From: an uncultured Candidatus Saccharibacteria bacterium
Lineage (GTDB): Bacteria > Patescibacteriota > Minisyncoccia > Phycocordibacterales > 01-FULL-45-15b
Assembly: GCA_964373765.1 (NCBI GenBank)
Contig: CAYJVZ010000002.1
Span: forward strand, 1 to 47,890
Length of the DNA stretch: 47,890 nucleotides
Direction: 5' to 3'
Notes under the pieces: model-generated
Seen by the model: the letters and a program-made list of their open reading frames with translations, nothing else
Told to the model about the DNA's origin: nothing
Database searches by the model: none
In this document: piece by piece, positions 11,858 to 47,890 of the stretch
Numbering within the stretch: the stretch's first letter is position 1
Layout: each line of letters starts with the position of its first letter
Position numbers and translations under genes: made by a program

Positions 11858-11997
11858 AAAATCATTCGTAATTTCTAATCTAGTGAGCACAATGTGTCCC
11901 CACGCAGTAACTCGACCGATCTATCATACTGGTATAAATATACTAGGATATTGCGACCAGAAAGTCCAATGTGACTATTTAGTAGCGCCAAGAGTTA

Positions 11998-12043
11998 CTG
12001 CGTCAACCTGCCACGTTGACGCAGTAGCACGTTGACGCAGTAG
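11998..12043. repeat. REP-like palindromic unit, dispersed copy of the R-repeat hairpin, with 16-nt tandem duplication
   Basis: ctgcgtcaacctgccacgttgacgca (11998-12023) is identical over 26 nt to 19441-19466 and 21641-21666. cacgttgacgcagtag is tandemly repeated at 12012-12027 and 12028-12043. Confidence 0.7.
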
Positions 12044-12138
12044 GGGCTTTTGGAGGAAAAGCCTCCAAAAACTTTAAAGCCTCCGAGGACCTTAAACACT
12101 CGGTTAATCTGCTACGTTGACCGAGTAAAACCGCCAGT

Positions 12139-18110: not shown

Positions 18111-19019
18111 TTATTTCTTATTGCCGCCTCGCGAGACTAATGCTTGAACGGCTTTTGTGACAATCGGCAAAATATCGTTGTAAAAGTTAAGCTCAAGAAT
18201 ATCGCTTAACTTAAACCATCTGGCGTCATCCAATCCTCCCGATTTGGCCAATTTTATATCCTCAAAGCTTGTCTCCGCTAGATAATAACTGACCTGCTTT
18301 CTTATCTTACCTTTTTTGGGGTCGGAAGCAATGTATTCATTTTTGCCAAGTTCGTCTTTAAGTTCAATCTTCAAGCCGATTTCCTCGCCTATTACTCTTT
18401 TTGCGCCGATTATGTCGCTCTCGCCTTCGTTAATATGACCTTTAGAAAGAGTCCAGTGTCCAAAAACATCATGCACCAAAGCCAAATAAATCTCATTGTT
18501 TTTTCTAGCGAAAACCACCGCTCCAGCCAATTTTTCAATAGGCATTTTTTTTCTATCCAACATTTGTCCCTTTTCTCTGGGAGCGCTGTCTTTTCCCGGT
18601 TCCCCAAGCTCTTTGTAAACTGAACCGAGCACGCCATTTATAAATTTTGAACTGTTTTCCCCGCCGAATGTTTTAGCAAGTTCGATCGCCTCATTAATAG
18701 CAACTTTAGCCGGCACTTCATTTCGGTCGGCGTAAATAAGCTCGTATAGGCCGAGCCGCAATATATTCCTGTCAACAATCGATATCTTGTCTAATGGCCA
18801 ATCTGGAGCGGCCTTTTCAATTATCAAGTCAATTTCTTTTTTTTTGCCTAGAATGTTTTTTAAGAGCTGTTTTAGAAAAGTGTCATCGCCAATACCGGGA
18901 GCAAATTCCTTAGTGTTTCGTTTTAATATTTCATCAGTTTTGTTGGGATTGCAGCCGCCAAAATCCCACTCAAAAAGTGACTGAAGAACTGTAGCTCTTG
19001 CAAGGTGCCTATTTGCCAT
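18111..19019 (-). CDS. nusB: NusB antitermination domain fused to a C-terminal Nudix hydrolase domain
   Basis: Residues 1-140 are NusB-like (ARATVLQSLFEWDF..., DRNILRLGLYEL, AINEAIELAK.., FINGVLG). Residues 194-216, GHINEGESDIIGAKRVIGEEIGL, fit the Nudix box GX5EX7REUXEEXGU except E to V at one position. Confidence 0.8.
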   Translation of the reverse strand: MANRHLARATVLQSLFEWDFGGCNPNKTDEILKRNTKEFAPGIGDDTFLKQLLKNILGKKKEIDLIIEKAAPDWPLDKISIVDRNILRLGLYELIYADRNEVPAKVAINEAIELAKTFGGENSSKFINGVLGSVYKELGEPGKDSAPREKGQMLDRKKMPIEKLAGAVVFARKNNEIYLALVHDVFGHWTLSKGHINEGESDIIGAKRVIGEEIGLKIELKDELGKNEYIASDPKKGKIRKQVSYYLAETSFEDIKLAKSGGLDDARWFKLSDILELNFYNDILPIVTKAVQALVSRGGNKK

Positions 19020-19305: not shown

Positions 19306-19311
19306 GGCTAA

Positions 19312-19340
19312 AATATACACTTCATGGCTAAATAATGCAA
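19312..19340 (-). promoter_or_regulatory. candidate rpmF promoter with leaderless geometry
   Basis: Minus strand reads TTGCAT (19335-19340)-17nt-TATATT (19312-19317)-ttagcc-ATG. Only 6 nt lie between the -10 and the start codon, and there is no SD. Confidence 0.45.
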
Positions 19341-19345
19341 ATATA

Positions 19346-19668
19346 TGCATCCGTCCAGCACATCTGAGACCTTTTTCTTGTAATTGTTTGCAAATATGCC
19401 TCAAAGGCGAAATTAAACCAAGCAATCAGTGAGAAACGCCCTGCGTCAACCTGCCACGTTGACGCACTTACGAGGAACGACTTGCGTCAACGTGGCAGGT
19501 TGACGCACTTACGTCTCGTCAAAGTTGAACCTCAACATTTGGTCAGACACATCGAACGCTCACGGTCGTGTTAGTTCGATGTGTGCGAAGTAACATTGTT
19601 CCAAATTTACAGACTGCCCCTTGTAAAAAAACAAAATAAAACCGCGACCATATTTCAGATCGCGGGAA
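19346..19668. repeat. long direct repeat R, copy 1 (non-coding, hairpin-dense)
   Basis: 19351-19630 reads identical to 21551-21830 (280 bp, offset 2,200). Homology continues at roughly 80% to about 19668/21868. No ORF is shared between copies. Confidence 0.9.
19631..19668 (-). terminator. Rho-independent terminator after ORF C (outer part of R copy 1)
   Basis: Minus strand: CCGCGA..TCGCGG stem followed by TTTTATTTTGTTTTTTT. Confidence 0.6.
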
Positions 19669-19782
19669 ATTTTTGTGTGTGTTCATGCCTTGCGGCAGTA
19701 CTTGCTTCTGTTGCCAAGCCTCACAATAGCTCCGTTTGCCCGCTTTCGCGTCAAACTGTTTGCGTCGGTCAGCGTCACCCCT

Positions 19783-20223
19783 TCAAGAATACTTCCGGAG
19801 AATGTCTTCTTGAATTGGATGGACTTTTTCAGCCCATTCGCCCTGGTACTTCGTCATCTCGCGCCATCCAGTCTCCGATAATATCGGCTGGCCAGTATCT
19901 TTCGCGATTTGCTTGGGTACCCGGACTCCAGTAAAAGCGTGCTGTACCACCCGCCACATCCGGTCAACTTCCTTTTGGGAGAGTCGACCGATTTTGCTCG
20001 GGGTGGACTGACTCGCCACATCGTTGGAAATATTACGAACATTCCAACATTGCGTGATCAGTTTTTTGCCTTTACCAGTTTGCGACCGGAACTCCGTCGT
20101 CAGACGCGGCTCGCTGTCCGCGACAATGGGCACGACGCAAGGTCCTTCGGGCCACATCATCGCATAGACGAACTGCACGCCACGGAATTCACGGATCTGA
20201 CCTCTGCGGAGGGAAGTTTTCAT
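19783..20223 (-). CDS. hypothetical protein (ORF C), N-terminal about 100 aa weakly PemK/MazF-like by eye
   Basis: 146-aa ORF in the GC-rich insert. RRGQI..., CVVPIVADSEP..., ...IGRLSQKEVDRMWRVVQHAFTG resemble the MazF strand order (RGD[IV], VxPxT, GxLsxeemxxixxal). Not verified by any search. Confidence 0.55.
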   Translation of the reverse strand: MKTSLRRGQIREFRGVQFVYAMMWPEGPCVVPIVADSEPRLTTEFRSQTGKGKKLITQCWNVRNISNDVASQSTPSKIGRLSQKEVDRMWRVVQHAFTGVRVPKQIAKDTGQPILSETGWREMTKYQGEWAEKVHPIQEDILRKYS

Positions 20224-20280
20224 AACAGTGATGCGGAACTGGTGCTCATCGGCGCACCTAAATAAAGCCGTTTGATTTAA

Positions 20281-20352
20281 AAGAACTGTAGACTCTATGG
20301 ATTCATAACTTCAGTTACGAACCCAATAAAGCGGAGAAATTTAATTTCTCCA
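20281..20352 (-). repeat. intra-island conserved non-coding module M2 (upstream of ORF C)
   Basis: Minus strand: hairpin GGAGAAAT-taa-ATTTCTCC, then GCTTTATTGGG, about 17 nt, then TGAATCCATAGAGTCTACAGTTCTTT. Paralogous to M1. Confidence 0.65.
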
Positions 20353-20433
20353 GCAGTTTCCACTTGCCAAGCGCCAAGGAGCTACCCCTCGGAATTACGT
20401 GCACATTTCGTAGTACAATCACGCAACCGCGAT

Positions 20434-20721
20434 TCAGTTTTGGTCGAAGAGCGGTTCCCACCACACCTGACAACCATAAACCACTTCGCCGTTGTCGAGA
20501 ACAATCTTTGGATTGCCATCGATCTTTTCCAACGTGCCGCCGATTTTCGCAACTTCCTCGTCGGTCGGGCGCGTTTCTGCCAGCTTATTGCTGACTAACG
20601 CACCTCGCGGATGATTGATGACGTAGACAGTCACATCCCCAACATATTGACCGAGGACGGTACCGTTTTCAGTTGCGACTTTCGCTCTGCACGGAATCGG
20701 AATTTGAGATTTAGTATTCAT
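20434..20721 (-). CDS. hypothetical protein (ORF B, 95 aa from ATG 20721)
   Basis: ORF track gives 20434..20763. The first 14 codons lie inside conserved module M1, so I prefer the ATG at 20719-20721. No recognisable family. Confidence 0.45.
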   Translation of the reverse strand: MNTKSQIPIPCRAKVATENGTVLGQYVGDVTVYVINHPRGALVSNKLAETRPTDEEVAKIGGTLEKIDGNPKIVLDNGEVVYGCQVWWEPLFDQN

Positions 20722-20724
20722 AAC

Positions 20725-20805
20725 AAAGAACTGAACTGTTGACTCTGTGGATTCACGACACAACGTTCATGTCCCCAATAAAATGGAGAAATTAGGTTCC
20801 TCCGC
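20725..20805 (-). repeat. intra-island conserved non-coding module M1 (upstream of ORF B)
   Basis: Minus strand: hairpin GGAGGAA-cctaa-TTTCTCC (one G-T pair), ATTTTATTGGGG, about 19 nt, TGAATCCACAGAGTCAACAGTTCAGTTCTTT. Confidence 0.65.
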
Positions 20806-20898
20806 TTCCCGCACTGCATGCGAGGCTCACGCTTCTTTTGAAGGTGACAACAATAGATGCTTCTGTGATGAAGGTGGCATCATCCTTCAGTACCGAGT

Positions 20899-21441
20899 TC
20901 ACTTTGGCACAAGCGCGATAGCATGCTTCCGGCCCGCAAAATTTTTCACCGGTTCAACCTTATGGTTGATGATGAAAAATTTCAGACCTCTCTCCACCAT
21001 GAAATCGACTACTGATTGACTAGGTACAGCAGCAATGAAATGCTCCCGACCACCAGTAAGAATAGTGCCGCCTAATCGGAAAGTGTTCTCATACGAGTAG
21101 ACTTTTCCATTTAGCTGACAGAACTCTTGACCAGGAATCCAATCGTATGTCTCTTTGAGGTGTAAAAGTCTGGCTGCAAGAACCTCCTGTCGAAGTGTTT
21201 CGGTTTGCTGGGTTGTTTTTTCCGTAAGAACGGAACGATGTAACCCTGCTCGACCGATTAGCGCGTATGCCTGGCTCTTTTTCAAACCAGTAAGCGCCAT
21301 CACTCCACAGACTCCATGCTTTCGGTATGTGCGTTCGACTGTGCCATCTTTGATCAAATGATCCCAAATGGCGGAAGATCGGTCACCGGCGTCAAAAGTG
21401 CTTCTTTTAACGACCAGCGTTCTTTCTCGTCTAAAGGGCAC
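20899..21441 (-). CDS. hypothetical HTH-containing protein (ORF A)
   Basis: Segment MALTGLKKSQAYALIGRAGL looks like an AlpA/excisionase/MerR-type HTH. The C-terminal about 100 aa are unknown. Start uncertain: GTG 21441 follows AAGGAAG, whereas the ORF-track GTG at 21471 sits inside a conserved hairpin. Confidence 0.5.
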   Translation of the reverse strand: MPFRRERTLVVKRSTFDAGDRSSAIWDHLIKDGTVERTYRKHGVCGVMALTGLKKSQAYALIGRAGLHRSVLTEKTTQQTETLRQEVLAARLLHLKETYDWIPGQEFCQLNGKVYSYENTFRLGGTILTGGREHFIAAVPSQSVVDFMVERGLKFFIINHKVEPVKNFAGRKHAIALVPK

Positions 21442-21506
21442 TAGCTTCCTTGTTCTGGTGTTCAATGGCACACCTATTTAAAGCCATTTTCAAAGTATCT
21501 GTGAAA

Positions 21507-21535
21507 ATCCTAGCATTTATATACTATTCTGTCAA
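21507..21535 (-). promoter_or_regulatory. candidate promoter of the A-B-C operon
   Basis: Minus strand: TTGACA (21530-21535)-17nt-TAGGAT (21507-21512). It lies 15 nt downstream of the R copy 2 boundary. Confidence 0.5.
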
Positions 21536-21545
21536 GCCCAGCGTA

Positions 21546-21868
21546 ATGCACCGTCCAGCACATCTGAGACCTTTTTCTTGTAATTGTTTGCAAATATGCC
21601 TCAAAGGCGAAATTAAACCAAGCAATCAGTGAGAAACGCCCTGCGTCAACCTGCCACGTTGACGCACTTACGAGGAACGACTTGCGTCAACGTGGCAGGT
21701 TGACGCACTTACGTCTCGTCAAAGTTGAACCTCAACATTTGGTCAGACACATCGAACGCTCACGGTCGTGTTAGTTCGATGTGTGCGAAGTAACATTGTT
21801 CCAAATTTACAGACTGCCCCTTGTAAAAAAGAAAAAAGAAAACCGCGATCATATTTCAGATCGCAGAG
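21546..21868. repeat. long direct repeat R, copy 2
   Basis: See copy 1. 21551-21830 is identical to 19351-19630. Confidence 0.9.
21831..21868 (-). terminator. Rho-independent terminator after ORF D (outer part of R copy 2)
   Basis: Minus strand: GCGATC..GATCGC stem followed by GGTTTTCTTTTTTCTTTTTT. The stem register is shifted relative to copy 1, but a hairpin is retained. Confidence 0.6.
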
Positions 21869-21885
21869 TATAACGTGTCACTTAC

Positions 21886-22185
21886 CTACTTTGGCATGCC
21901 GCACATTCTACACTTGCCAGAGTATAGCTCCACATAAGCAGCACCGTTTTGAAACGGAAGAGATTCTCTGGTTTTGGAATCCTTAGGAATCAAGACATTT
22001 AGACTTATCTCCACACCGCCCGAGTCGAGGAAGCCAGCACAAAACAATAGCATGGACCGGTGATTTTCAAATGGGTCGTACGCTTCAATAGCTTGATCAA
22101 CGTATCCATCCTTCCGCGGCACTAATTTGACCACCTTATCAGCAATGTTCACAACTAATCTAATCTCTCCTATTTTTGAAGTCAT
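21886..22185 (-). CDS. hypothetical protein (ORF D, 99 aa, C-terminal CRMC)
   Basis: ORF with about 45% GC, followed by a terminator and R copy 2. No recognisable family. Confidence 0.45.
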   Translation of the reverse strand: MTSKIGEIRLVVNIADKVVKLVPRKDGYVDQAIEAYDPFENHRSMLLFCAGFLDSGGVEISLNVLIPKDSKTRESLPFQNGAAYVELYSGKCRMCGMPK

Positions 22186-22241
22186 TTTTCTTTACTTTGG
22201 TTGATTGTTCGTACTTTCTGTTAAGGTACTTAGCCTTTATA

Positions 22242-22270
22242 TTATTATTATATAAATATTATTACGTCAA
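22242..22270 (-). promoter_or_regulatory. candidate promoter of ORF D
   Basis: Minus strand: TTGACG (22265-22270)-17nt-TAATAA (22242-22247), in a very AT-rich spacer after rnhB. Confidence 0.4.
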
Positions 22271-22327
22271 ACATTTCTGCGGTACATTCAACATTAAAGT
22301 GCAACACTTTAGGATGATCTGCAACTT

Positions 22328-22930
22328 CTATTTTGAAGTCAGGTGGTCGGTAAATGACTTTCTATGCAAAACGGATATTCCGTATTTTTTTATGGACTGA
22401 ATATGCATTTTCGTGCCATAGCCTTTATTATATTCCAAATGATATTTTGAGTGCTTCTTGCTGTAATTGACCATTACTCTATCTCGCTCAACTTTTGCCA
22501 CAACTGACGCCGCGGAGATAATTTTTATCTTTTGATCGCCTCTAATAATCGTTTTTTGCTCTAAAAATTTAGGTGGAGCTCTTAACGACCCGTCAAGAAG
22601 GATCTTTGAGGAAGTCGGGTCAGCCCTGATTGAGGTCAGAATCCTATCTATAAGCTTGAAAATAATTTTTTGAATTCCCTCTTTATCAATGGATTTGGGC
22701 TCTGCTTTTTTGATACATATATAAATTAGCTTATCTTTCTCCATATTCCGCAATACTTCATACCAATAGAGCCGCTTTGCCGCGCTTAGCAATTTCGAAT
22801 CCCTTATGCCGCTTAATTTTCTGTTAAGAAGGCGGGTATTTGTGCTGTCAGTATATACCGCGCCGACCATGACAGGCCCGGCTAAAGGACCTCTGCCAAC
22901 CTCATCTATTCCAACAATATATTTCGCCAT
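22328..22930 (-). CDS. rnhB: ribonuclease HII
   Basis: GIDEVGRGPLAGPV active-site motif. 200 aa. Confidence 0.9.
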   Translation of the reverse strand: MAKYIVGIDEVGRGPLAGPVMVGAVYTDSTNTRLLNRKLSGIRDSKLLSAAKRLYWYEVLRNMEKDKLIYICIKKAEPKSIDKEGIQKIIFKLIDRILTSIRADPTSSKILLDGSLRAPPKFLEQKTIIRGDQKIKIISAASVVAKVERDRVMVNYSKKHSKYHLEYNKGYGTKMHIQSIKKYGISVLHRKSFTDHLTSK

Positions 22931-22987
22931 TTTTTTTTTGAATTAACATACTCTGCAATATTGGGCGCTATGTATTATAATTCCTCT

Positions 22988-43835: not shown

Positions 43836-43922
43836 TTATTCGCTTATTCGTACGAATGGTACAATACAAGTGCAATAGTGATACAATAGTAGCGCGATAG
43901 TATGAGAGAATTCGAAATAATT
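43836..43922 (+). repeat. direct repeat copy A: ArsR-type promoter/operator plus first 7 codons
   Basis: 43836-43922 matches 47804-47890 with 1 mismatch (offset 3,968; the repeat runs to the window end). Contains the 12-bp palindrome ATTCGTACGAAT and an extended -10, TGgTACAAT (43857-43865). Confidence 0.85.
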
Positions 43923-47803: not shown

Positions 47804-47890
47804 TTATTCGCTTATTCGTACGAATGGTACAATATAAGTGCAATAGTGATACAATAGTAGCGCGATAGTATGAGAGAATTCGAAATAATT
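47804..47890 (+). repeat. direct repeat copy B (ArsR-type promoter/operator and 5' end), truncated by the window edge
   Basis: See copy A. Confidence 0.85.
47870..47890 (+). CDS. ArsR/SmtB-family regulator, 5' end only (partial at window edge)
   Basis: ATG AGA GAA TTC GAA ATA ATT is identical to the first 7 codons of 43902..44045. Confidence 0.5.

Follow-up and report, generated by a model that had tools for sequence, protein, structure and literature searches.

Two identical, hairpin-rich non-coding repeats bracket a three-gene block between rpmF and rnhB in a patescibacterial contig

How does a spacer between two housekeeping genes come to hold two identical copies of a non-coding sequence, with three genes between them? 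The question is raised by the window analysed here, a stretch of 47,890 nucleotides from a tiny-genome member of the Patescibacteria of the Paceibacteria type, in which the host genes rpmF (L32; 19048-19305, minus strand) and rnhB (22328-22930, minus strand) lie on opposite sides of a 3-kb insertion. A hairpin-rich sequence, here called R, stands in this insertion in two identical copies that bracket a 1.9-kb block of three genes, ORFs A, B and C. The best explanation, to which I would give somewhat less than even confidence, is that R is a common module by which a cassette of R and A-B-C recombined with a resident terminator-R module, leaving the flanking repeats behind.

The repeat, its edges and its neighbours

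A direct extension test bears out the 280-bp identity 2,200 bp apart that a reading of the sequence alone had claimed: 19351-19630 (R1, the rpmF-proximal copy, immediately upstream of that gene) equals 21551-21830 (R2, which precedes the ORF A promoter). A repeat search of the window returns the pair as a direct repeat of 291 nt (19351-19641 and 21551-21841, 99%, spacing 2200). The low-side edge is abrupt, at GGACGG/(A)TGCAT. At the high side homology runs beyond the exact core, as had also been proposed, through a terminator hairpin to about 19668 and 21868, at an identity of about 87%. This flank of about 46 nt aligns with some 6 differences besides one 1-nt indel, so that the terminator parts are spaced 2201 apart. 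At the divergence rate of the flank, 0 differences in 280 nt would have a chance of about 1e-17, and the sharp edge of the identity is therefore real. Outside a 26-nt palindromic unit, the other ~250 nt of R have no further occurrence in the 48 kb.

On the minus strand both copies stand in the contexts that the sequence-only reading had described, and its layout of gene(s), terminator and R, twice over, is correct. For R2 the order is the stop of ORF D, terminator and T-tract, R2, 15 nt, -35 hexamer and ORF A; for R1 it is the stop of ORF C, 114 nt, terminator and T-tract, R1, 9 nt, -35 hexamer and rpmF. Intrinsic terminator 1 (19642-19665, minus strand; an 8-bp stem with TTTTATTTTGTTTTTTT) follows ORF C and immediately precedes R1 on that strand, and terminator 2 (21843-21866, minus strand) takes the same position between ORF D and R2. 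The two are homologous and about 13% different in the alignment, and the changes between them leave the stem paired. The ORF A promoter, TTGACA-17-TAGGAT (21507-21535, minus strand), has a TG before its -10 hexamer and is conserved in L008, at the locus of the ORF A homologue; rpmF is preceded by a promoter-like site, TTTGCA-18-TATATT (19312-19341, minus strand). Exact identity over 280 nt beside diverged, stem-preserving terminators is as expected of a recent crossover or conversion tract in an older homologous module, and upholds the recent recombination or gene conversion that had been suspected.

A compositionally foreign block in a variable spacer

The insert with its A-B-C block is compositionally foreign: its GC content is 46-53%, whereas most host spacers have 20-33% and host genes about 40%. 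The spacer in which it lies is a variable spot throughout the lineage, as the distance between rnhB and rpmF is as short as 30 nt and as long as 6.7 kb among 46 related Paceibacteria loci, often with deviant GC. Neither R, nor its palindrome, nor any of ORFs A-D occurs in this gap in the relatives (0 of 46), and since R is missing from all of them it is not a native rpmF leader.

ORFs A-C are near-ORFans. ORF A (20899-21471, minus strand; 190 aa as listed, 180 aa from 21441 as called in the Logan data described below) carries a helical, HTH-like segment at its N terminus and has a single homologue (66%). A profile search gives it a weak HTH-like signal (Phage_AlpA, E = 0.19) and its predicted structure has a pLDDT of 48, so that a DNA-binding role would be a guess. 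ORF B (20434-20763, minus strand; 109 aa, probably 95 aa from an ATG) is a small protein with homologues on related element contigs and on phage-like contigs, the more distant ones in the latter. ORF C (19783-20223, minus strand; 146 aa) has a predicted MazF-like fold (MazF/Kid/CcdB) with C-terminal helices and is a member of a rare family in which a QCWNxR motif is invariant; its weaker Foldseek matches include CptN and ToxN. ORF D (21886-22185, minus strand; 99 aa), an ORFan, has a promoter to itself (22270-22241) and leads into terminator 2 and R2.

ORFs A, B and C, together with two leader motifs, are held in common with a rare family of elements (L008, L009, L116 and L117). The type-1 leader motif, GGCTTTAAATAGGTG (21471-21485, minus strand), is common to L008, L116 and L117, and a second copy in the window, upstream of ORF C (20255-20269), extends through GAGCACCAG at 20239-20247. 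The type-2 leader (20283-20304, minus strand) consists of a hairpin and GAATCCAYAGAGTCWACAGTTC; it has a second copy at 20733-20754 and at least 7 copies in L116. Elements of this family carry repeated structured intergenic modules between nearly all genes, among them 25-28-bp hairpins and type III hammerhead ribozymes on the coding strand, with several of the latter in L116, L009 and L117. By sequence, the A-B-C block is thus linked to what appears to be a rare phage-like mobile-element family, whose style of genome would be prone to module-mediated shuffling.

Homology between the window and L008 spans ORF A, its leader and its promoter, and ends within ~10 nt of the R2 boundary; at the position of R2, L008 has a different repeat-rich non-coding region with iteron-like ATGGGAC/ATGAGAC repeats. 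This suggests that R acts as an exchangeable module just upstream of the -35 hexamer, and its native role would most likely be that of an upstream control region of ORF A. No related copy of R is present in the public data searched. The search of related genomes and Rfam that had been proposed was run and returned neither a homologue nor a family match, and R has no homologue in the loci of 80 relatives in the genome collection, in GenBank phages or in PLSDB plasmids. A search with the palindrome pattern only, in JGI metagenomes and IMG/VR, found nothing except chance palindromes with other spacers. Both R and its palindrome are absent from the recovered relatives of the A-B-C block, while the palindrome recurs in another host spacer (see below), so R may be the host's rather than the cassette's; any function of R is putative.

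Junctions and a proposed route of insertion

The contigs of two Logan read-set assemblies, which have low coverage and break every 2-4 kb, provide independent data. Whether R is approached from ORF C or from ORF D, the contigs of both stop exactly k-1 = 30 nt within its high end, which means that two different contexts truly enter R. In both, R passes unbroken, and without a branch at its low end, into rpmF. Three of the four junctions (ORF D-R, ORF C-R and R-rpmF) are thus directly supported, and the junction of R2 to ORF A is on no contig of either assembly, so that a free circle or a mis-threaded assembly may apply.

In the case of a mis-threaded assembly or a mixed population, the chromosome would contain a single R (rnhB-ORF D-terminator 2-R-rpmF), and A-B-C-terminator 1-R would exist separately, as a 2.2-kb circle, as part of a larger element or in a sub-population only; the assembler would have walked the repeat node twice and written X-R-Z-R-Y. 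I regard this as rather unlikely, though it has to be taken seriously. A graph with the edges X to R, Z to R, R to Y and R to Z fits an integrated copy and a circle plus empty site equally well, and the path from R to rpmF is the unbranched one in the Logan data. One Logan contig (L002) starts at 21485, at the type-1 leader, with a base that differs from the window (a against t at 21486), and another (L007) has a 27-nt tandem duplication within R, which shows R to be polymorphic. The window contig itself ends inside another repeat that the assembly failed to resolve (47804-47890 = 43836-43922), so repeats did trouble this assembly. Because an assembler that passes through a single repeat node two times puts out the same letters each time, the 100% identity may mask a few collapsed differences. 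However, the k-mers that join R2 to the ORF A promoter must have been present in the source reads, as an assembler cannot invent them, and the R-to-ORF A DNA is therefore real. The flow in the Logan graph, with two paths in and one out, indicates that an exit edge was simply lost, in assemblies of low coverage and frequent breaks. Even if mis-threading occurred, the chromosome keeps a terminator 2-R homologous to the terminator 1-R of the cassette, and the conclusion of recombination through R is barely altered.

According to the preferred reading, recombination of a cassette at R, ORF D-terminator 2-R would already have been resident in the rnhB-rpmF spacer. A cassette of R, promoter, ORF A, ORF B, ORF C and terminator 1, which measures 2,200 bp as a circle, would then have entered through one crossover within R, by homologous recombination or by a site-specific event at the palindromes, giving X-terminator 2-R-A-B-C-terminator 1-R-rpmF. 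With such a crossover the two copies of R would be direct repeats on either side of a segment recently inserted by recombination, and would let the 2.2-kb circle loop out again with a single R remaining. Alternatively, two cassettes of promoter, gene(s), terminator and R could have arrived in tandem, followed by gene conversion of R, with the same picture as a result. Entry of a circular R plus A-B-C unit at R had been among the first suggestions for this locus, and fits best with the foreign composition, the variable spot and the element family; its strict att-like form is doubtful, as an identity of 280 bp is far longer than an att core and no recombinase, Rep or transposase is recognisable among the larger ORFs scanned in the window. 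ORFs A-D match no recombinase in Pfam, PHROG, NCBIfam or PADLOC. Besides this, the absence of R from the A-B-C relatives and an identity that is perhaps partly an assembly effect count against the cassette reading. Four points go beyond what the sequence-only reading had noticed: a third locus with the palindrome of R, at 11999-12023 (see below), the link of ORFs A-C to mobile elements, the MazF-like fold of ORF C, and the ambiguity that any X-R-Z-R-Y graph brings to an assembly.

Palindromes of R and comparison with known systems

R contains no convincing ORF, in accordance with the claim that its copies share none, and is packed with hairpins as had been noted, the fold z-score being about -7.4 for RNA of either strand and -7.3 for DNA. 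The core of R1 is a double palindrome (19442-19507) of two 25-nt units, TGCGTCAAC-N7-GTTGACGCA (9-7-9), in inverted orientation and 16 nt apart; its twin in R2, found by the repeat and inverted-repeat search, lies at 21642-21707. The arms are 100% complementary, and CTTACG follows each unit. A third hairpin (19547-19584; twin at 21747-21784) has an 11-bp perfect stem, ACACATCGAAC/GTTCGATGTGT. The identical 25-nt palindrome is also found outside R, at 11999-12023 (26 nt exact, same 7-nt spacer), in the rpsP-khpA spacer, which is unusually GC-rich (47%) and packed with hairpins, and where there is also an extra GTTGACGCA half-site (12031) and, at about 12100-12128, a degenerate copy. This brings the exact units to five at three loci, four of them inside R, as counted within the 48 kb, and the asymmetric 7-nt spacer is kept exactly in all five. 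The palindromes would most likely be protein-binding sites in the DNA, be it an operator, an origin or a recombination site, rather than an RNA gene.

The copy in the rpsP-khpA spacer, with its half-site and degenerate relative, raises the alternative that R is a mosaic of genome-specific dispersed palindromes, REP/REPIN/BIME-like or MITE-like, in spacers downstream of genes; A-B-C would then lie between two copies, or have been duplicated with one, and R would have no specific tie to the cassette. As in REP, REPIN and BIME elements, the palindromes are extragenic, follow gene 3' ends at both copies of R, form an inverted doublet that makes one long hairpin, the layout of a REPIN, and occur in mosaic clusters with a further copy elsewhere; that they are missing from the relatives of the cassette fits as well. 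I nevertheless consider this explanation unlikely. Only the 26-nt unit is shared, most of R being unrepeated in the window, and just one of the five units in 48 kb lies outside R. There is no RAYT (TnpA_REP) gene or Y1 transposase in the window, inspection by eye reveals no terminal inverted repeats or target duplications at the ends of R, and the homologous terminators beside both copies would be left unexplained.

The 9-7-9 geometry is that of lambda-Int-type core sites. The 25-nt units could thus be core sites of a tyrosine recombinase, with 9-bp inverted arms and a 7-bp overlap, and R the attachment region of an integrase-less mini-element that, like IMEX or pdif modules, relies on a recombinase of its host; site-specific instead of homologous recombination would then have produced the direct repeats. 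The exact conservation of the asymmetric spacer is what strand exchange would need, and the sites at 19442 and 21642 are in direct orientation, so that a recombinase joining the two would cut out exactly 2,200 bp. However, the window is without a recombinase, the identity covers 280 nt and not a short core, and the pattern is missing in relatives and metagenomes apart from the chance palindromes mentioned, which makes this reading distinctly improbable. IMEX and the pdif modules of Acinetobacter resemble the present layout in that small gene modules, often toxin-antitoxin, lie between short palindromic recombinase sites, which alternate in orientation and are mobilised by a host recombinase. 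In contrast, the sites of R are 9-7-9, not the 11-6-11 of XerC/XerD, and their arms, TGCGTCAAC and GTTGACGCA, are perfectly symmetric, unlike the known dif consensus. The 48-kb window contains no recognisable dif-like sequence, nor an Xer gene, and flanking 28-bp XerC-6-XerD sites are absent, which speaks against an IMEX/pdif module. A lambda-type element with attL and attR was rejected, with no integrase among ORFs A-D and with 280 nt of identity plus about 46 nt of diverged homology in place of a short core.

Should R instead be an operator, enhancer or insulator that binds protein and controls the ORF A and rpmF promoters together, the position of both copies, ending 9-15 nt upstream of a -35 hexamer, would be accounted for, as would the four 9-nt half-sites per copy; the weak Phage_AlpA signal of ORF A and the different repeat cluster at the equivalent place in its homologue point the same way. 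Yet the spacing to the -35 is unequal between the copies, relatives have rpmF without any such element, and the perfect 280-nt identity is left unexplained, as is the duplicated terminator. Moreover, half-sites with a centre-to-centre distance of 16 bp, as in R, are atypical for dimeric HTH operators. Of the readings weighed, this one I hold to be extremely improbable as an account of the whole of R, although the palindromes by themselves may serve as an operator or insulator.

A structured RNA had also been proposed and appears very unlikely; it might act as an sRNA, be processed by RNase III, or cleave itself as a module that takes the place of the hammerheads in related elements. The fold is very stable, the related elements have hammerheads and long hairpins between their genes, and R flanks a short gene block as hammerheads do in prophages (PMC3088659). 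Against this, R has no Rfam match at any threshold, lax filters yielding only spurious miRNA-hairpin matches far below threshold, and the whole window gives 0 matches at the gathering score. Each copy has immediately upstream of it a strong intrinsic terminator, the T-rich tract of which measures 17 nt, no promoter was found within R and none is shared by both copies, the main stems are perfect Watson-Crick palindromes that are equally stable on both strands and as DNA, and no R homologues were found; the proposal thus gained no positive support. Blocks flanked by hammerheads in prophages (Perreault et al. 2011, PMC3088659) do share with this locus a short gene block between copies of a structured element, but the insert in the window has no hammerhead or other known ribozyme in Rfam, and R is placed behind a terminator.

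With type III toxin-antitoxin systems (ToxIN, CptIN) the locus has in common the predicted MazF/ToxN-type barrel fold of ORF C and, in R, two direct repeats of a hairpin unit, 41-nt-spaced, next to a terminator. The order in those systems is promoter, tandem RNA repeats, terminator and toxin, while here R is downstream of ORF C and upstream of ORF A; this candidate was rejected, as the leader hairpins upstream of ORF C are without tandem repeats and there is no Pfam match to ToxN, CptN or TenpN. Also rejected were a retron, as no RT domain was found, and an IS or MITE, as there is no transposase and no convincing TIR or TSD at the ends of R or of the block. Integron cassettes and attC arrays, including CALINs, likewise combine gene(s) and a structured repeat with dyad symmetry, in an array of one orientation, have toxin-like genes with their own promoters, and pass through a circular cassette intermediate, which is postulated here. 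They differ in that the ORFs scanned in the window include no IntI, nor is there an attI, although a CALIN requires neither. Also, the palindrome of R is a perfect 25-bp stem without the extrahelical bases or unpaired central spacer of a folded attC, its candidates for the R''/R' boxes (RYYYAAC/GTTRRRY), GTTGACG and CGTCAAC, fit at only 5 of 7 positions when read directly, and R measures 280 nt behind a terminator, with three genes and their promoters in one cassette. An integron or CALIN array was rejected on these features.

A documented precedent is provided by the PeSLs (promoter-early stem-loops) of T4-type phages, terminator-plus-promoter cassettes that flank ORFans and recombine to mini-circles without a dedicated recombinase (Arbiol et al. 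2010, PMC2839356). Both PeSL and R are repeated intergenic modules that join a terminator stem-loop to a promoter-proximal region and flank ORFans in variable regions; in the window, each copy shows a terminator, R, and a promoter 9-15 nt downstream, flanked by an ORFan or near-ORFans. PeSLs are short, include a conserved promoter and occur in many copies in phage genomes (PMC2839356), whereas R has 280 nt with a double palindrome, lies in a bacterial chromosome with differing promoters outside it, and is known in two copies. When flanking PeSL copies recombine, genes are gained or lost and small circles arise, with no recombinase dedicated to the process (PMC2839356). The same is proposed for R, the layout of which resembles what a small cassette would leave behind if it had entered by recombination and were able to loop out again.

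Gene order at the rnhB-rpmF locus

All genes at the locus are on the minus strand. In that direction rnhB (22930-22328) comes first, followed by a promoter and ORF D (22185-21886), terminator 2 with its T-tract, and the repeat copy R2; a TTGACA-17-TAGGAT promoter 15 nt after R2 then leads into ORF A (21471-20899), ORF B (20763-20434) and ORF C (20223-19783). Terminator 1, with a 17-nt T-rich tract, is located 114 nt past ORF C and is followed by R1, and 9 nt further by a TTTGCA-18-TATATT promoter, rpmF (19305-19048), the nusB-NUDIX gene, rnc and smc. Each R copy is directly preceded by a strong terminator, and the sequence-only reading was right in placing both copies in the same minus-strand context (gene stop, terminator, R, promoter); from R to the -35 hexamer there are 9 and 15 nt. 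At rpmF, the motif TTTAGCCATG is present twice, 20 nt apart, upstream of and at the start of the gene (19306-19345), the first copy opening a 5-codon mini-ORF; the pair may be a small duplication that arose with the insertion of the upstream DNA. The NusB protein (18111-19019) carries a NUDIX hydrolase domain fused to its C-terminus, and every one of the 80 related genomes retrieved has this fusion. Near 22,950 the GC skew appears to switch, but this merely tracks the switch of gene strand at rnhB/dnaE.

The host is a Paceibacteria/Parcubacteria-type member of the Patescibacteria. With its NusB-NUDIX protein as query, 80 genome loci were obtained (best identity 69%), and the order dnaE (minus strand), rnhB, rpmF, nusB, rnc is conserved among these related loci. 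In the 46 loci with both genes, the rnhB and rpmF matches are separated by anything between 30 nt and 6.7 kb, with 88 nt or less in 13 loci, and the gaps are often deviant in GC; the rnhB-rpmF spacer (19306-22327 in the window) is a lineage-wide variable insertion spot across the Paceibacteria. No direct repeats flank the larger gaps in these 46 loci. Homologues of ORFs A-D were absent from the 80 loci, and so were R and its palindrome (blastn, nhmmer, and a motif search allowing 2 mismatches). As all of these are absent from 80 of 80 loci, R is not a conserved rpmF leader, and the whole 3-kb rnhB-rpmF content of the window is specific to its lineage. This content is GC-rich, with 46-53% vs. 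about 40%.

The repeat R and its two junctions

A repeat search of the window yields 19351-19641 and 21551-21841 as a 291-nt pair (99%, spacing 2,200 bp), and a direct extension test shows that 19351-19630 and 21551-21830 share exactly 280 identical bases, which confirms the repeat pair as first read. Beyond these 280 nt, the homology on the high-coordinate side spans an intrinsic terminator; over about 46 nt the copies differ about 6 times, one of these being a 1-nt indel, and pairwise alignment of both contexts ends the homology at about 19668/21868, again as had been read; on the low side it ends abruptly, between GGACGG and (A)TGCAT. Two stem differences between the terminators leave the stem paired (C-G to U-G and U-G to U-A, minus strand). 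Given the roughly 13% divergence between terminators 1 and 2, finding 0 differences in 280 nt has P ~1e-17, so there is a sharp boundary of conversion or crossover, unless minor differences were collapsed during assembly. The claim of recent recombination or conversion is supported as far as this identity boundary goes, but such a collapse may account for part of the perfect identity.

That R is packed with hairpins holds as well, as it folds far more stably than shuffled sequences (z ~ -7.3 to -7.5, on either strand and as DNA). Its core consists of two 25-nt units separated by 16 nt: one reads TGCGTCAAC-CTGCCAC-GTTGACGCA, the other is the exact reverse complement of the first. Each is a 9-7-9 palindrome with CTTACG after it, and both together are able to form a perfect 25-bp stem. 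R further contains two hairpins, one of 11 bp and perfect (19547-19584), the other of 5 bp, and a tail, richer in AT, adjoining the downstream promoter. The main hairpin stems are purely Watson-Crick, and a promoter scan of both strands found none inside R. In Rfam, the region, and R alone with lax filters, gave only spurious miRNA-type hairpin matches, and the whole window gave 0 matches at the gathering score, so the earlier idea of a structured RNA found no family to lean on. That R is a structured or self-processing RNA, by analogy with the hammerheads of related elements, I regard as very improbable, considering the terminator upstream of R, the lack of a promoter, and the symmetric stems without Rfam match. 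ARAGORN detects neither a tRNA nor a tmRNA in the window, which excludes R as an integration target of the tRNA type.

The palindrome has a third exact copy in the rpsP-khpA spacer, at 11999-12023 (26 nt exact, with the same 7-nt spacer). This intergenic region (11891-12138) also holds a GTTGACGCA half-site at 12031, a degenerate palindrome copy at about 12100-12128 and two further strong hairpins, and its GC content of 47% is close to the 46% of R, against 20-33% in most other host spacers. Hairpin material related to R seems to have been inserted here a second time. The asymmetric 7-nt spacer is exactly kept in all five palindrome copies of the window. One may therefore ask whether R is a genome-specific palindromic mosaic of the REP/REPIN/BIME type, without relation to the cassette, which would be consistent with this third locus and with the absence of the palindrome from all cassette relatives; however, only 26 nt of R recur elsewhere in the window, and I consider this explanation quite unlikely. 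Outside the genome, the palindrome pattern had 26 matches in the JGI metagenomes, all of them single palindromes arising by chance, with loops unlike that of R and without R around them, and 1 chance match in IMG/VR, while GenBank phages and PLSDB plasmids contained no relatives of R.

The same organism is found at ~100% identity in the Logan assemblies of two independent runs (ERR3478686 and ERR4904390). Contigs from the ORF C side (L002, L003) end at 19601, those from the ORF D side (L004, L005) end at 21801, and two others (L006, L007) start at 19630/21830. The overlaps at R are exactly 30 nt (k-1), as is characteristic where two paths run together in a single repeat node, and hence the ORF C-R and ORF D-R junctions are both real. 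L006 and L007 pass through R into rpmF, unbroken at the low end of R. In neither assembly does a contig join R to the ORF A promoter: L002 starts at 21485, the first base of a conserved leader, preceded by 'a' where the window has 't', and the 60-aa ORF spanning the R2-ORF A junction, looked up for other contigs, is not on record. This missing link, together with the unbroken passage from R to rpmF, speaks for a mis-threaded assembly or a free circle. However, the source assembler is unable to invent junction k-mers, so R-to-ORF A DNA exists, and the flow balance in the Logan graphs points to a lost exit edge; I rate mis-threading or a free circle as unlikely, though to be taken seriously. The Logan assemblies are fragmentary, with breaks every 2-4 kb. 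In L007 (from ERR4904390), the first palindrome region of R carries a 27-nt tandem duplication (CGAGACGTAAGTGCGTCAACCTGCCAC twice, L007 130-156, corresponding to window ~19480-19510), which implies that R is polymorphic in nature, or that the copies differ and were collapsed in the window assembly.

The data cannot distinguish between an integrated copy, a 2.2-kb circle next to a single-R chromosome, and a mixture of both; my own estimate leans, with some reserve, towards the integrated form. In each of these cases, the cassette's terminator-R module has a homologue on the chromosome. The window, a whole contig of 47,890 bp, ends inside another repeat, an 87-nt direct repeat (47804-47890 and 43836-43922, 99%), probably because this was unresolved; it is another repeated intergenic element of the host genome.

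The cassette genes and a related element family

None of ORFs A-D gave a significant match in Pfam, PHROGs, PADLOC or NCBIfam, a PDB sequence search with ORFs A and B returned nothing, and tblastn of ORFs A-C against GenBank phages found no match; ORF D is an ORFan. ORF A has one homologue among 5.8 billion proteins (P0002, 66%), encoded on the JGI contig L008. Its structure model is too poor for use (pLDDT 48), and profile search adds no more than a weak hint of an HTH. Common to the window and L008 are the ORF A coding region, the leader motif GGCTTTAAATAGGTG...GAGCACCAG and the promoter, and the homology ends within ~10 nt of the R2 boundary. In place of R, L008 has a non-coding stretch, over 500 nt long, with iteron-like ATGGGAC(A)/ATGAGAC(A) repeats, both closely spaced direct ones and an inverted pair (L008 100-420); it has no sequence kinship to R, but the same position relative to the conserved promoter. 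A leader of the form GGCTTTAWWTAGGTGYGCC..TGARCACCAG precedes ORF A (21441-21485), ORF C (20210-20269) and the ORF A homologue of L008 (599-660). The one before ORF C contains a mini-ORF of 9 codons (MSTSSASLL), and the stop of this mini-ORF overlaps the start of ORF C (TTATGA); L008 has a similar mini-ORF, its stop overlapping the TTG start; as read from the sequence, these overlaps suggest translational coupling or a hairpin hiding the Shine-Dalgarno sequence.

ORF B has a dozen relatives, the closest on L116 (13 kb) and L117, the more distant ones on tightly packed phage-like contigs with RtcB, NUDIX, Pyr_excise, DUF3310 and GP17. The family of ORF C (19783-20223) is very small, with ~4 relatives among 1.8 billion representative proteins, 36-38% identity and an invariant QCWNxR. 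With the AlphaFold (AF2) model of ORF C (pLDDT 81), Foldseek retrieves MazF/Kid/CcdB toxins (probability 1.0, TM ~0.5-0.6), and ORF C is predicted to be a divergent protein of this fold with extra C-terminal helices. On contig L009, a homologue of ORF C follows 14 nt after a 69-aa ORF, an apparently toxin-antitoxin-like layout.

Two leader motifs are common to L116, L117, L009 and the block in the window, where both are restricted to 20239-21485. The three contigs have repeated structured intergenic modules, and those with the closest ORF B/C relatives contain conserved 25-28-bp hairpins and a 73-nt repeated structured unit. Between their small genes, on the coding strand, there are 8 matches to the type III hammerhead ribozyme (31.8-46.2 bits, E 2e-7 to 3e-3), all of which fall below the gathering score of 48.5: five in L116 (5662-5716, 6509-6562, 9851-9904, 10474-10527, 11543-11596), two in L009 (1095-1175, 1576-1630) and one in L117 (1476-1554). 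In the window block, Rfam detects no hammerhead. L116 4280-4620 is AT-rich and non-coding; it contains numerous TTGTCA(T/A) repeats as well as an inverted pair of 40 nt, and has the appearance of an origin, or of a regulatory region, in the related element. Searches with the leader motifs in IMG/VR gave chance-level or zero matches, and tblastn against GenBank phages found no match to the family. From prophages, hammerheads are known to flank short blocks of genes or single ones (PMC3088659). The hammerhead-rich element family of the three contigs is undescribed.

Proposed recombination through R and known systems

The most economical account of the locus is a crossover of a circle into R. A terminator-R module would already have been present at the hotspot, behind ORF D, and a circular unit (R-promoter-A-B-C-terminator) would have recombined with it inside R. 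The outcome would be two copies of R, identical over the exchanged or converted tract; the neighbouring terminators would keep their older divergence. Three features agree with this account: R has its boundary just upstream of the -35 hexamer, where the homology with L008 stops; the related elements are built as mosaics punctuated by repeats; and there is the ORFan content. Alternatively, two [promoter-gene(s)-terminator-R] cassettes could have arrived in tandem, with R converted later, which would leave the same picture.

As to the function of R, I favour DNA sites that are bound by a protein and have a link to ORF A, be it as operator, origin or recombination site, as may be inferred from the repeat-rich non-coding regions, differing in sequence, before ORF A in the window and L008, and from the perfect DNA palindromes formed by the stems of R. 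That R acts as an operator or insulator for both promoters, on the other hand, seems most improbable. The 9-7-9 geometry and the kept asymmetric spacer would presumably suit the core site of a tyrosine recombinase, as in lambda-type cores. IMEX/pdif-like site-specific recombination at the palindromes by a host recombinase is nevertheless distinctly improbable, no recombinase being in view in the window. A bolder possibility, to which I give little credence, is that R is the attachment module of undescribed, integrase-less mini-cassettes of Patescibacteria, travelling as ~2-kb circles and joined by a host recombinase at the 9-7-9 palindromes. Units of [promoter-gene(s)-terminator-R] would then pile up head-to-tail at the rnhB-rpmF hotspot, the ORF D cassette first and the A-B-C cassette thereafter, resembling an integron- or pdif-like system, but with a different site and in a minimal-genome symbiont. 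Still more speculative, and by analogy only, is the variant in which R would be a new self-processing RNA, in the place that hammerhead ribozymes have in the related elements.

The genomes of Patescibacteria (CPR) are tiny and streamlined, and little is known about the routes by which these bacteria gain genes. If real, the arrangement gives a concrete route, namely recombination via a shared non-coding module beside an essential ribosomal-protein gene, as well as a conserved insertion hotspot between rnhB and rpmF, and a link to a rare, ribozyme-rich, phage-like element family. If it reflects only the threading of a small circle, it would point to a 2.2-kb replicon sharing a recombination module with the host chromosome, which would also be unusual for the phylum. 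The repeat pair is a ready-made test system (loop-out circle vs. single-R site), readable from existing read sets.

The sequence-only reading could match the layout to none of retron, integron, CRISPR, type III TA and IS architectures, and after each was considered, this stands. Integron attC is rejected, as the stem of R is perfect, without extrahelical bases, and there is no IntI. So is a lambda-type att pair, given an identity of 280 nt and the lack of an integrase. For a type III TA locus the order is wrong, and no ToxN-family match is present. R is not dif-like, and dif/IMEX in the strict sense is dismissed as well. Retrons, CRISPR, IS/MITE, known RNAs, protelomerase sites, RCR origin nick motifs and a DnaA-box origin were likewise rejected; of all the classes named, several were rejected by reading of the sequence alone. 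I rate the locus as a mobile-element cassette that lies between repeats in a CPR chromosome; its junction module is an orphan, palindromic and of unusual length, and ordinary recombination is the default explanation. In T4-type phages, recombination between flanking copies of the PeSL terminator-promoter cassettes gives rise to mini-circles and shuffles ORFans, with no dedicated recombinase involved (PMC2839356). These cassettes parallel the locus in the boundary near the -35 hexamer, the mosaic style and the ORFan content; functionally, R comes closest to such recombination-prone regulatory cassettes and, more loosely, to cassette arrays.
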